Shown here: positions 41,785-54,766 of the stretch, one piece after another
How positions within the stretch are numbered: the stretch's first letter is position 1
Layout of the letters: every line of letters starts with the position of its first letter
DNA from: Candidatus Aenigmatarchaeota archaeon
GTDB lineage: Archaea; Aenigmatarchaeota; Aenigmatarchaeia; QMZP01; QMZT01
Direction of reading: 5' to 3'
Assembly (NCBI GenBank): GCA_043808015.1
Contig: JAZDFI010000008.1
Location: 13,271 to 77,270, forward strand
Length of the DNA stretch: 64,000 nt
Notes under the pieces: generated by a model
Told to the model about the DNA's origin: nothing
Seen by the model: the letters and a program-made list of their open reading frames with translations, nothing else
The model's database searches: none
Translations under genes and position numbers: made by a program

Positions 41785-41865
41785 TCCACGGTCTGGTCAA
41801 AGAGGTGCGGCATTAGCCCCCCGTGATGCAGGGTTAAAATTCGCGCCCTGATCAGAAGGCCATGG
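41785..41865 (+). ncRNA. Copy 1 of an exactly duplicated 81-nt GC-rich structured element; candidate small RNA gene with upstream TATA-like box and downstream oligo-T
   Basis: Identical to 51988-52068; predicted coaxial helices CCACGG/CCAUGG, UCUGGUCA/UGAUCAGA and GGUGCG/CGCGCC; internal GUGAUGC...CUGA; followed by GGUUUUACC. Confidence 0.5.
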
Positions 41866-46400: not shown

Positions 46401-47993
<1,593 letters not shown>

Positions 47994-48216: not shown

Positions 48217-48694
48217 TAAAAGCCTTTTAGAAAAAGGCTTTAGCGAAAAACGAAAGCGCGAACAATGTATATAAAGACCTGGCAACAATAATTAGTTGCT
48301 CACGCTTACGGAAAACGCAGGTGATGTCTGCGGTTTCCAAAACAATGGCTATCCAAAGCTGTTCAGAGCTGTGTCGTATCCGTGACAGGGAATGGCATTG
48401 CAGTCGGAGGGTGGCGTACGCGAGTACGATATCTGTTTTTCTGGACAAGCTAGGGCTAGCGACAACCAAATCTCAATGTCACGGATCATGCTAACCACAT
48501 TACACCGAACCGATTGCGGTTGATGCAAACCCGCTTTCGGCATATGAAGCCTTTCAGCGAACGCTGATGGGTGGATTAGAGAGGAGCGATGAATATCATA
48601 CAGTCACCTGAACGGACGCGCAAGCGCCTGTAATGACGAGGTGAACACCAATTGAGTTCCTTGATGATGAAACATTGGCGAGTTGTCCTGACAA

Positions 48695-51600
48695 AAAGGA
48701 TCTGCTACGTTGTGTGGTGGATGGTTTGGTTCGAGGGCCGAAGAAGGACGTGGCAAGCTGCGATATGCCGGGGGTAGACGCAAGCAGTCTTTGAACTCCG
48801 GATCTCTCAATGAGACTTCTTAACTTCGGTTGTTGGCCTTCGGGTCATCGGTGACGCCCTGAATTGAAACATCTTAGTAGGGGCAGGAAAAGAGAACAAT
48901 AGTTATTCCCTTAGTAGAGGCGATTGAAAAGGGAAGAGGACAAACCGAATCTTCTGGTGTAAGCCAGGAGAGATGTGGGGTTCGGACCTGTGCTCATCCT
49001 AACTTCTAAGTCCGAAGTGATCTGGAAAGATCCACGGCAAAGGGTGATAGTCCCGTAGGAGGACAGAAGAAGGTTGATAGCGGGTATCCAGAGTACCAAT
49101 GGTCGAAGATCCATTGGGAATACGGGAGCCAGTAACTCCTAATCCTAAATACACCTCGAGTCCGATAGCGCACAAGTACGGTGACGGAAAAATGAAAAGT
49201 ATCCTTAATCGGAGATTAAAAGAGCCTGAAACCATGCAACTATAGGTAGACATTGCTTCTGCTTTGCAGGAGTTTTGTCGCCCGTGCGGAAACACGCGTC
49301 AAGGAGTTTATTTTTGTGGCGAGGGTAATTCAAGTACCCATAGCGAAAGCGAGAACTGCGCAGCGGCTTCGTGCCGTCAGGCAGTCAGGTTTGAAAGAGC
49401 CTACAGTCACAAGGATAAGACCTGAAGCTAGTCGATCTAGCCCTTGGTAGGGTGAAGTCTGGCGAAAGCCAGATGGAGGCCCGGTAGAGATGCTGAGATT
49501 CAAATCGCTCACGTAACCTGGGGCTAGGAGTGAAATGCTAATCGAGATTAGCGATAGCTGGTTCCTCTCGAAATATGCCTCAGCATAGCCTGGTCGGAGA
49601 TGGATGGCGGGGTATAGATACTGATTGGGCAACCAAGGACCGAAAGGTCCAGTTGTCCTGTCAAACTCGGAATCTACCATCATCGCAGAAGACCGGAGTG
49701 GGAGCGCCGGGGTAAGCTCGGTGTTCGAAAGGGCGAGAACCCAGCCTAAAATTAAGGTCCCTAAATTCAAGCTAAGTGATAAAAAGCGTCTTCAACCTTA
49801 TACAATAGGGAAGTTGGCTCAGAAGCAGCCACCTTTTAAAGAGTGCGTAATAGCTCACCTATCTAGGTTGTGGGCCTTGAAAATGGACGGGACTAAGCTT
49901 GGTACCGATATTTTAGATTCCTAAAAGGAATATGGTAGAGAGGTGTCCTGCTAGGGCAGAAGTTCTCTCGTAAGAGGGAATGGACCTTGCAGGAATAAGA
50001 ATCTTGATGATAGTAGCAGCAATAGTGAAGTGAGACACTTCACCACCTAAAGGGCAAGGGTTCCTCAGCAACGTTCGTCGACTGAGGGTTAGTCGGTCCT
50101 AAGGCAAGCCCCAATTGGAACTTGCCGAAAGGGAAGCAGGTTAATATTCCTGCACCATGAGAATACGAGTGGCGACACAAGTTCATTTCCTGACGCTTCT
50201 GGATAAATCGATCATTTCGGTGATTAACCGGTTAAACCTGTGGAGTACCGTAATGGTGAGAAACAGGCCAAGCCGGCAATAGCTGACGTATGTCAGTTCG
50301 GTTGACTTCAGGAGCCCGTGAAAAGGGAAATGGAATGGATTTTTCATGTCCGTACCAAGAACCGTTACTGGTGCCCCTCGCTGAGAAGGCGAAGGTGTAA
50401 TAGGAAAATTCAGGTCAAGGAATTCGGCAAAATCGCCCTGTACCTTTGGTATAAGGGGTGCCTAATCTTCTGGCTCAGCCAGAACGATTAGGTCTCAGTA
50501 ACTAGTGGGTTGCGACTGTTTAACAAAAACGTAGGGGGCTGCTAGGTGGAAACGCTTTGTATAGCTCTTGAGGCCTGCCCAGTGCCGGTGTGTTAAACTG
50601 GCTAAAACCAGCCAAGCCCCGGTAAACGGCGGCGGTAACTCTGACCGTCTTAAGGTAGCGTAATCCCTTGTCGATTAATTGTCGACCTGCATGAATGGCT
50701 TAACGACATCCCAACTGTCTTGATCTGAAGCCTAGCGAACTTAGTTGTCCAGCGAATATCCTGGAGTCCTTCAGCGGGACGAGAAGACCCCATAGAGCTT
50801 TACTGCAGTCTGTTGTTGTAGTATGCTGATGGTCGCATAGCGTAAGTGGGAGCATCGCACTCAAGTCTTCGGGTTTGAGGAAGGCGTCAATGTAACACCA
50901 CTCCACCGTCAACATATTGCTTACCTTTAGGGGGACAGCAATTGATGGGCAGTTTGGCTGGGGCGGTACGCCTCTGATAAAGGATCAGAGGCGCCCTATG
51001 GTCGGCTCATTCCGGTCAGAAATCGGAAGCAGAGTGTAAGGGCAAAAGCCGGCCTGATAGGATTCTGCAAGGCAAAGAATCCTAACGCGAAAGCGTGGCC
51101 TAGCGATCCGCTGTGTCTCTATTAGCTGAGAGCCAGCTCTGTCAGAAAAGTTACCTTGGGGGTAATGGAGTCGTGGCGCGTGAGAGTCCATAACTCATTT
51201 CTCGTTCTCGATAAGTCTGAACAAAAAACGATACATACCTTGTGTATGTTAAAGCTTTTTGTCAGGACAAGCAGAAAGCAGAATATATAATCATCTGTTG
51301 GCTGTTGAGTCACACGTATCTATGCCCATTCATTGGGCTGCAAAGGTGCGTGTGATGATGAAAAATCGAGAAGTGAGAGGTCAAATCGACCGCGCTCGTT
51401 GCTTCTCCGCCGTCGGCTCGGCTCTTCCTGGACGTGCAGCAGCGTCCAAGGGTGGAGGTGTTCACTCATTAAAGAGTCACGCTAGCTGGGTTAAATACGG
51501 TGCGAGCCAGTATGGTCTATATCTGCTGAAGGTGTTGGTTACCTGAGGGTAGAATGCAATTAGTACGAAAGGAACACTGCGTTGTGGCCTCTGGTGTATC

Positions 51601-51825
51601 GGTTGTGTCTGCATTGCCGAGTAGCTACGCCGCTGAGGATAAAGGCTGAAAGCATCTAAGCCTGAAGCCTCTCCCGAAAATAGGTAACCGTTCATCAAAC
51701 TGATACGCAAGTATCGGCGCGATGAGGAAGGTCTCGTAGACGACGAGGTTGATGGAAGCGGGGTGTAAGTACCAAGCTTAGGCGAGGTATTCAGCCCACG
51801 TTACCCAATCACCTGACAGATCTTT
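48695..51825 (+). rRNA. rrl: 23S rRNA gene (archaeal), with an insertion of about 180-190 nt in the peptidyl-transferase-region sequence; boundaries approximate
   Basis: 5' region GGTGGATGG...GAAGGACGTG; sarcin-ricin-region AGTACGAAAGGAAC; helix-1 pairing GGAUCUG(48699-48705)/CAGAUCU(51817-51823); about 2945 nt excluding the insert. Confidence 0.85.
51195..51385 (+). other. Candidate 23S rRNA intron/insertion splitting the conserved ...AAGAGUUCAUAUCGAC... (E. coli about 2470-2480) segment; flanked by an imperfect 15-nt duplication of the target (GUGAGAGUCCAUAAC / GUGAGAGGUCAAAUC)
   Basis: Upstream exon matches archaeal consensus up to ...AGUCCAUAAC, and consensus resumes at ...GGUCAAAUCGACCGCGCUCG; no endonuclease ORF inside. 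Confidence 0.5.
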
Positions 51826-51987
51826 GTCAAAAGGACAACTCGCCAATTATGTTTCCTCTATTTTTATTAATGGAGAACTGCATAGCGTCAGCTATCGCTG
51901 GCGTTACTTGATTTTGAGTCGGTAAAACCGGCAACCAGCGGACGCCAGAGTAACATATAAAAAACTTTGTGAACCAATAATAATTGG

Positions 51988-52068
51988 TCCACGGTCTGGT
52001 CAAAGAGGTGCGGCATTAGCCCCCCGTGATGCAGGGTTAAAATTCGCGCCCTGATCAGAAGGCCATGG
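51988..52068 (+). ncRNA. Copy 2 of the 81-nt structured element; preceded by ATATAAAAAA (about 51957-51966) and followed by a T-rich tract
   Basis: 81/81 identity with 41785-41865; lies between the 23S 3' end and the RNase P RNA promoter. Confidence 0.5.
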
Positions 52069-54657: not shown

Positions 54658-54766
54658 GGGCCTGTAGCTCAATCGGCAGAGCACCAGACTCTTAGATGTT
54701 ATGAGGCGCTTGCGCCCGTGACTGCGTGATATCTGGGGGTCGCGGGTTCGATTCCCGCCGGGCTCA
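54658..54766 (+). tRNA. tRNA-Lys(CUU) with a 36-nt canonical 37/38 intron (54695-54730)
   Basis: Acceptor GGGCCUG/CGGGCUC; D-arm GCUC-AAUCGGCA-GAGC; anticodon stem CCAGA/UCUGG; loop CUCUUA|A; T-arm GCGGG-UUCGAUU-CCCGC; A73. Confidence 0.8.

Follow-up and report, generated by a model that had tools for sequence, protein, structure and literature searches.

A probable bulge-helix-bulge intron at the tip of helix 89 in the 23S rRNA gene of a Candidatus Aenigmatarchaeota archaeon

What is an insertion of nearly 200 nucleotides (nt) doing beside the peptidyl-transferase centre (PTC) in the 23S ribosomal RNA (rRNA) gene of a Candidatus Aenigmatarchaeota archaeon, and is it kept in the ribosome? The gene of this DPANN archaeon lies in contig JAZDFI010000008.1 (assembly GCA_043808015.1), of which a stretch of 64,000 nt, called the window hereafter, was analysed; all positions are those of the window, and the 23S unit and its parts lie on the + strand. 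The initial annotation, made from the letters alone, had described an insertion of about 180-190 nt at 51195-51385, edged by an imperfect duplication of about 15 nt of the target and lacking a homing-endonuclease open reading frame (ORF). An intron was favoured there, with a mobile-element scar as the alternative, and alignment to large subunit (LSU) covariance models, a search for bulge-helix-bulge (BHB) motifs and comparison with relatives were proposed as checks, whereas a mature 23S retaining the segment or a stable expansion in relatives would have spoken for another origin. The present analysis indicates, with high probability, that the insert is an archaeal BHB intron located in the apical loop of helix 89 (H89), between Escherichia coli positions 2477 and 2478. 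This reading is supported by the junction motif, by its recurrence and covariation in relatives and by the absence of the insert from the RNA-derived 23S of relatives.

Aligned to the Rfam model LSU_rRNA_archaea with cmscan, the 23S gene extends over 48693-51828 with a score of 2477.5 bits and is otherwise intact. A focused cmscan places 195 inserted bases (51191-51385) against 2 model positions, the rest of the LSU matching continuously, so that the insertion stands with borders within a few bases of those first given, and it is refined here to 193 nt at 51192-51384. The inserted bases lie between GUGAGAGUCCA, whose last base is 51190, and UCGACCGCGC, whose first base is 51386, at about model position 2571, and the covariance model alignment thus puts them in the loop capping H89, a helix drawn in the model as <<<-<<<<<<<<---<<_____>>--->>>>>>>. 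H89 is the helix leaving the PTC central loop. The placement in the PTC region is therefore right in that the insert stands beside that loop, but its actual position is the tip loop of H89 and not the PTC central loop itself. The E. coli numbering comes from our own alignment, anchored on the modified positions D2449, Psi2457, Cm2498 and m2A2503, in which G51186-U51191 correspond to G2472-U2477 and A51385 to A2478. Accordingly, the cmscan alignment gives a 5' exon portion comprising the 5' strand of H89 and the first six loop bases (51169-51191) and a 3' exon portion (51385-51403) that starts with the final loop base, the counterpart of A2478, and goes on with the 3' strand of H89. The 193-nt intron between them is defined by the model alignment, the BHB fit and the RNA-derived contigs, and excision of 51193-51385 would give an identical product, as an A is repeated at the boundary. 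The region 51165-51410 is strongly folded (-93.3 kcal/mol, compared to -62.2 +/- 4.0 in shuffles; z = -7.7). In agreement with the initial annotation, no ORF, and thus no homing-endonuclease ORF, is contained in the insert; the nine overlapping ORFs of at least 20 amino acids are no longer than 95 amino acids, most of them crossing its borders.

Both junctions can be drawn as one BHB by a fixed-site analysis. Its 5' half (51186-51192) has the central strand GUCC at 51186-51189 followed by the bulge AUA at 51190-51192, and its 3' half (51379-51385) has the central strand GGUC at 51379-51382 followed by the bulge AAA at 51383-51385. Three of the four positions of the central helix are paired, with a U51187-U51381 mismatch at the second one. 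The outer helix of 2 base pairs (bp), GA with UC (G51184-C51387 and A51185-U51386), is the top of H89 and continues into it, while on the other side an A51193 x A51378 mismatch separates the 5' bulge from an inner helix of 11 bp, in which CUCAUUUCUCG (51194-51204) pairs with CGAGAAGUGAG (51367-51377). With one cut behind the second base in each bulge, the predicted splice sites are 51191/51192 and 51384/51385, giving a mature loop GUCCAUA and the predicted product GAGUCCAU joined to AUCGACC. The insert thus shows two 3-nt bulges across a four-position helix, in a relaxed form, flanking helices on both sides, a cut rule yielding the mature sequence and, indirectly, absence of the segment from the processed RNA of relatives.

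Comparison with relatives revealed BHB-type inserts at the same site. When species-representative genomes were searched with a 15-mer, two of the 120 matches listed were real rRNA (contigs are designated here by handles such as L088): L088 (JAPLVC010000006.1, Candidatus Aenigmatarchaeota MAG LacPavin_0920_SED3_MAG_50_31), whose 23S is 99.6% identical in its 3' half, and L116 (CAVSBQ010000002.1, Ca. Aenigmarchaeota MFD04408.bin.2.45), with 90.7% 23S identity. Their inserts of 188 nt and 159 nt, respectively, have flanks identical to those of the window and internal hairpins with compensating changes. A metagenome search, using as query the 3' strand of the unusual PTC sequence of this lineage, matched at least 120 contigs; among the 120 matches listed, to which the following counts refer, 77 have an H89 of normal length, 35 have inserts of 39-347 nt in the same place and eight lack the 5' anchor, at least one of these (L153) being unlike rRNA. 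In one contig, L154 (SMTZ1_10005022), the H89 insert is followed directly by GAGCGUUCGUUGCU, with no UCGACC 3' strand to complete H89, which may reflect a damaged rRNA gene or a misassembly. The register of the motif was revealed by a short insert, L172, with GUUC/GAAC as central helix, the bulges CUA and AUA and the inner helix GGAG/CUUC. The same fixed-site geometry fits 32 of the 33 distinct inserts, which range from 39 to 347 nt (11 with all four central pairs, 21 with three), and covariation links the central helix to the exon loop, GUUC occurring with GAAC or GAAU and GUCC with GGAC or GGAU.

Covariation is also seen within the intron family that includes the window. In an alignment of 17 homologous introns (A1), double-sided changes are seen at 6 of the 11 inner-helix pairs, with 95.7% of cells paired, and the U51187-U51381 mismatch is kept in all 17 members. 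For the complete BHB structure named above, 92.6% of cells in A1 are paired and eight pairs changed on both sides; none of 500 shuffles reached the observed values, and slid controls were 33-58% paired. RNAalifold on a MAFFT alignment recovered the inner helix alone, as the variable hairpins misalign.

The fate of the insert in RNA can be followed through the processing of the 23S itself. The processing stem is a textbook BHB, with an outer helix of 14 bp, the central helix UGAC/GUCA, AAA bulges on both strands and an inner helix of 9 bp. As read from the sequence, its 5' strand (48675-48704) consists of the outer UUGGCGAGUUGUCC, UGAC at 48689-48692, AAA at 48693-48695 and the inner AAGGAUCUG, and its 3' strand (51817-51846) of the inner CAGAUCUUU, GUCA at 51826-51829, AAA at 51830-51832 and the outer GGACAACUCGCCAA. 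From the Rfam match and the canonical cuts deduced after 48694 and 51831, the predicted 23S unit spans 48695-51831, being 3137 nt with the intron, and its ends would be joined as AUCUUUGUCAAA followed by AAAGGAUCUGCU. This exact joint is found in L127 and L121, which are 97-98% identical to the window 23S over its full length. Both contigs are circular (terminal overlaps of 123 and 62 nt), forming circles of 2944 nt with the 23S 3' end directly joined to the 5' end, and this length equals that of the window unit minus the intron (3137 - 193 = 2944). Circular pre-23S intermediates are known in archaea (PMC7714728; bioRxiv 10.64898/2026.03.23.713588), and the location of the joint at the predicted BHB cut sites indicates that L127 and L121 derive from RNA. 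Across the H89 site they read GAGUCCAUAUCGACC, with no insert. Moreover, five contigs with window-identical flanks (L121, L127, L187, L189 and L198) read ...GUGAGAGUCCAUAUCGACCGCGC..., identical to the predicted spliced product.

None of the 17 circular 23S contigs among the matches listed has the H89 insert, and no RNA-derived 23S contig retaining the segment was found. Within the sub-clade, taken as about 86% 23S identity or more, the insert is present in all ten contigs having non-rRNA flanks (the window, L088, L116, L123, L155, L165, L236, L163, L201 and L221), and it is absent from all four circular contigs (L121, L127, L189 and L232) and from all four contigs consisting of 23S sequence only (L141, L187, L198 and L215).

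These intron-less contigs could instead come from strains, or from a second operon, in which the DNA site is empty, the insert of the window then being unspliced and the gene possibly a pseudogene. Such a reading draws on the fact that the nearest intron-less sequence is 97-98% and not 100% identical, as well as on the empty sites in the DNA of more distant clade members. However, the contigs without intron are circular and have their joint at BHB cut sites, which makes them RNA; the distribution of the insert among flanked and circular contigs (10/10 against 0/4) would arise about once in 1000 times under random assignment, by our own arithmetic; and the gene, at 2477 bits, is otherwise intact. 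This explanation is thus considered unlikely.

Another origin would be a stable expansion segment of H89 retained in the mature 23S, which would be consistent with its strong structure (z = -7.7), with its conservation and covariation in relatives and with its presence in every genomic contig of the sub-clade. Homologous sequence does occur in relatives, but in the DNA contigs of the wider clade the H89 site is occupied in some and empty in others, its length ranging from 0 to 347 nt, and none of the 17 RNA-derived circles carries the insert, two of them having the length of the gene minus 193 nt. In addition, the tip of H89 lies near uL16 and the A-site tRNA accommodation corridor in established ribosome structures, leaving little room for an appendage. 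Retention in the ribosome is therefore very improbable. The same low standing is given to an intervening sequence excised without religation, producing a fragmented 23S as with the bacterial helix-25/helix-45 intervening sequences: an insertion at a helix tip closed by a long stem would fit it, but the junctions fit a BHB and not an RNase III-type duplex, and in the RNA-derived contigs the 23S runs through the site without a break and has its canonical loop again.

The mobile-element scar proposed initially relied on the imperfect repeat of about 15 nt at both edges. The repeat is present, with GUGAGAG exact at 51180-51186 and 51373-51379 and about 10-11 of 15 bases matching overall, but a 7-mer repeated within about 200 nt is near the chance expectation. 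A likeness of seven bases upstream of the central-helix strands is seen in 8 of the 33 distinct inserts, all from this sub-lineage, the others having 0-4 of 7. Moreover, the 5' copy is exon (H89 strand and loop), while the 3' copy is formed by the 3' strand of the inner helix, the central helix and the bulge. Being lineage-specific, and with a structural 3' copy, the repeat does not represent a target-site duplication; the pseudo-twofold symmetry of the BHB accounts for some of the likeness between the edges. Neither terminal inverted repeats nor an ORF accompany the insert, and its conserved motif is confined to the H89 site, so that a DNA scar found no support and is scarcely credible. A self-splicing intron of group I or II might also be considered, as LSU genes of DPANN archaea have group I introns close to the PTC (LSU 2500 and 2593; PMC6125680) and a U/...G/ boundary pair can be drawn at 51187/51188 and 51380/51381. 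The chance of this is negligible, however, since no Rfam group I or II family matches the insert even with E up to 10, where all hits are at chance level, the 193-nt fold consists of hairpins closed by one helix with no P3-P7 core, and that pair would leave a GUUCAAA loop where the RNA contigs show GUCCAUA.

Returning to the BHB intron, its interior contains three hairpin regions. The first, P2 (51215-51268), is a variable domain missing in shorter homologues, drawn from the fold and from compensating changes of its apical stem relative to L116. The second, P3 (51270-51306), is also drawn from the fold and ends in the near-invariant UUGGCUGUUGA (columns T126-G136 of A1, invariant or nearly so). 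The third, at 51305-51363, is a kink-turn-like hairpin, supported by a consensus match and covariation, consisting of UU, GA at 51307-51308, a 13-bp canonical-stem hairpin at 51309-51356, GAU at 51357-51359, GA at 51360-51361 and AA at 51362-51363. The homologues have three blocks in common, namely a 5' CUUCUCG, UUGGCUGUUGA and a 3' GAUGA-AAAU-AUCGRGAAG, and the hairpin located between UUGA and (A)UGA varies freely in stem sequence while its pairing is always kept. The order UU-GA-[canonical stem]-NAU-GA-AA is that of the kink-turn consensus, having a canonical stem, a 3-nt bulge, tandem G-A/A-G pairs and a non-canonical stem.

This motif occurs in 19 of the 26 distinct introns of at least 80 nt, compared to a mean of 0.65 in shuffles. 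In a mini-alignment of 23 sequences, in which apical parts were replaced by GAAA solely to register the stems, U8, U9, G10, A11, U32, G33 and A34 are invariant, all seven stem pairs changed on both sides and 92.5% of cells are paired; the covariation value is 0.756, against 0.269 when shuffled (0/500 as high) and 0.08-0.18 in slid controls. The conserved intron motif is confined to the H89 site, apart from one additional match in L161 located in an apparent coding sequence. A kink-turn as a general trait of the 23S inserts of the clade was considered and rejected, as a loose form of the motif is found in 26 of 34 inserts at H89 and in 0/14 and 0/8 at two short-insert sites. From its sequence, we infer that the hairpin would bind L7Ae. 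A role as box C/D guide was likewise rejected: a conserved UUGGCUG preceding UUGA finds no complement in the 23S longer than a 7-mer, which is at chance level, the kink-turn is single, and Rfam box C/D families match with E about 3-5, well below their gathering scores.

Several points weigh against the intron or call for caution about its structure. The BHB is relaxed, with the U-U in its 4-bp helix and the A-A beside the 5' bulge. A strict unconstrained BHB scan of both junction regions gave no candidate restoring H89, and the search for BHB motifs suggested initially succeeded only with the register fixed as in tRNA introns and with a tolerance of one mismatch. The BHB-constrained fold (-87.4 kcal/mol) is about 6 kcal/mol higher than the free minimum at -93.3 kcal/mol, in which two small hairpins form (GAGU/ACUC and GGUC/GACC) and the inner helix takes a shifted register. 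The kink-turn is defined by consensus and covariation, and its hairpin ends were set by a stem-maximising script, which favours basal pairs. Furthermore, the RNA origin of the circles is deduced from their permutation at BHB cut sites and not from sample metadata, and splicing in this genome would follow by phylogenetic bracketing, the insert being present in the DNA of the 99.6% and 90.7% relatives and missing in the RNA of relatives whose 23S, the nearest that is RNA-derived, is 97-98% identical.

Regarding the energy of the fold, a tandem UUCUCG UUCUCG at 51199-51210, at the 5' end of the intron, gives the inner helix two registers, one fitting the BHB and the other preferred by the free fold, which suggests that a conformational switch may exist. 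As the BHB fold lies above the minimum, the cleavable conformer probably needs protein help or co-transcriptional folding. This need would be compatible with the broad specificity of DPANN tRNA-splicing endonucleases (EndA), and possibly with the kink-turn: these EndAs carry an L3 loop associated with more disrupted tRNA genes and linked by its authors to a broader substrate specificity (PMC5829648).

The proposed mechanism would then be the geometry of a tRNA 37/38 intron transplanted onto a seven-base rRNA hairpin loop. By analogy with established archaeal splicing, EndA would cut after the second base of each bulge, an RNA ligase of the RtcB type would join the exons, restoring the loop GUCCAUA, and the excised 193-nt intron would probably be circularised. 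An L7Ae-bound kink-turn might serve as a scaffold for the imperfect BHB or tie splicing to the assembly of the ribosome. Extending this hypothesis, the introns at the H89 site could form a distinct BHB class with a splicing or fate dependent on a ribosomal protein, where L7Ae holds the mismatched BHB in a cleavable form or stabilises the circle as a small ribonucleoprotein; this extension is tentative and rather doubtful. If true, L7Ae-assisted splicing would act as a checkpoint of 50S assembly at the PTC, and the similar modules in the 16S and tRNA-Lys introns described below would point to a lineage-wide handling of introns.

As for its meaning, the intron reading implies a ribosome without a 190-nt appendage on H89, as the gene is interrupted and the RNA repaired, and it would add an rRNA intron site, the H89 loop at 2477/2478. 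In addition, a conserved kink-turn module within a BHB intron is flagged, and circles of pre-23S assembled from metatranscriptomes can be used as direct evidence of intron removal in uncultured archaea. The operon was also mis-annotated by automated rRNA and tRNA callers, the 16S being truncated by cmscan and a tRNA missed by ARAGORN.

Other features of the operon were observed. The strands of the PTC central loop adjoining H89 (51159-51168 and 51404-51413) are variant, with GGGAUAACAG changed to GGGGUAAUGG and ACCUCGAUGUCGG changed to UCUCCGCCGUCGG, corresponding in our own E. coli numbering to A2448G, C2452U, A2453G, A2497U, C2499U, U2500C, A2503C and U2504C. These changes may be partly coordinated, A2453-C2499 becoming G-U and C2452/U2504 becoming U/C. 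The 3'-strand variant is present in at least 120 metagenome contigs, including 17 RNA-derived circular 23S, which indicates that it is expressed and clade-wide and not a feature of a pseudogene. No literature on this variant was found, and it may be more surprising than the intron. Additionally, the sarcin-ricin loop (51586-51599) reads AGUACGAAAGGAAC in place of AGUACGAGAGGAAC, that is, G2661A in the same numbering.

Insertions are frequent in the 23S genes of this clade. In contigs L121-L240, 190 inserts of at least 30 nt were mapped at more than 40 positions, some genes exceeding 5 kb (the LSU of L161 has 5043 nt). The H89 site is the one most often occupied, a count to be read with the sampling pattern adjoining that site. 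A second frequent site, near window position 51441, has 14 inserts of 36-108 nt and is empty in this window.

The 16S and tRNA introns given as context in the initial annotation are also borne out. The small subunit rRNA is placed at 46401-47839 by cmscan, but the true 16S end is near 47991 (GGAUCACCUCCU at 47981-47991), the match stopping early because of an insert of about 142 nt between AAGUCGUAA and CAAGGUAACCGUA. This insert (about 47814-47955) is located near E. coli 1500/1501, L116 having an insert at the same site, and it has an 11-bp closing helix GUGACGAGAUG/CAUCUCGUCAC and a kink-turn-like hairpin, UUUGA[GGGAUUC..GAAUCCU]UAUGACA, at 47828-47854. Downstream, Rfam identifies an interrupted tRNA-Lys(CUU) at 54658-54766, in which about 37 nt of intron follow position 37, and ARAGORN reports no tRNA in the whole window. 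The tRNA intron, AUGUUAUGA[GGCGC-UUG-GCGCC]CGUGACUG..., has a GA-[hairpin]-NNN-GA design like the rRNA introns. Lastly, an 81-nt repeat with 100% identity is present at 41785-41865 and 51988-52068 on the + strand, with about 155 nt between the end of the 23S and the latter copy. No Rfam family matches the repeat (E up to 5), and its fold is a long hairpin (-37.4 kcal/mol, z = -2.6). Given the GUGAUGC and CUGAUCAGA within it, the repeat may represent a small RNA or a miniature repeat element.

Concerning known systems, the literature covered, with older subscription literature lying outside its scope, yielded no description of the H89 loop (2477/2478) as a BHB intron site and none of a kink-turn in an rRNA BHB intron. 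Knowledge of BHB introns in archaeal rRNA dates from 1985, and introns abound in DPANN LSU genes (PMC3608112, PMC6125680); described cases include the 23S of Desulfurococcus mobilis and of Staphylothermus marinus, the 16S of Pyrobaculum and Thermoproteales and the DPANN LSU (PMC3608112, PMC4496867, PMC6125680). Similar to them, the H89 intron interrupts a conserved rRNA region, has BHB junctions, restores an rRNA helix and is patchily distributed, and ORF-less forms also exist among them. Besides these similarities, it differs by the conserved U-U in the central helix and the conserved kink-turn hairpin, as well as by the lack of a homing-endonuclease ORF in all 33 distinct H89 inserts among the matches listed. 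Archaeal group I introns, reported at LSU 1923, 1931, 2500 and 2593 and at SSU 1498 (PMC6125680), are likewise found around the PTC in DPANN LSU genes; however, the H89 insert has another site and another junction rule, with no ribozyme core or Rfam match. The BHB of the pre-23S processing stem (PMC7714728; bioRxiv 10.64898/2026.03.23.713588) shares the motif and the cut rule with the H89 intron but releases the rRNA, whereas the BHB at H89 removes an internal segment. Meanwhile, the euryarchaeal tRNA-Trp intron, which hosts a box C/D small RNA, is also a BHB intron with an L7Ae-type kink-turn, although the one at H89 is a single hairpin-closed kink-turn (UUGA opposite AUGA) with no C'/D' pair and no convincing guide. 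In terms of geometry, the counterpart is the tRNA intron at 37/38: despite its location in an rRNA hairpin loop, its much greater length and its internal structure, the H89 intron has an identical arrangement, in which a helix closes a seven-base loop, loop bases 1-4 pair with the 3' end of the intron and the two cuts release the segment between loop bases 6 and 7.

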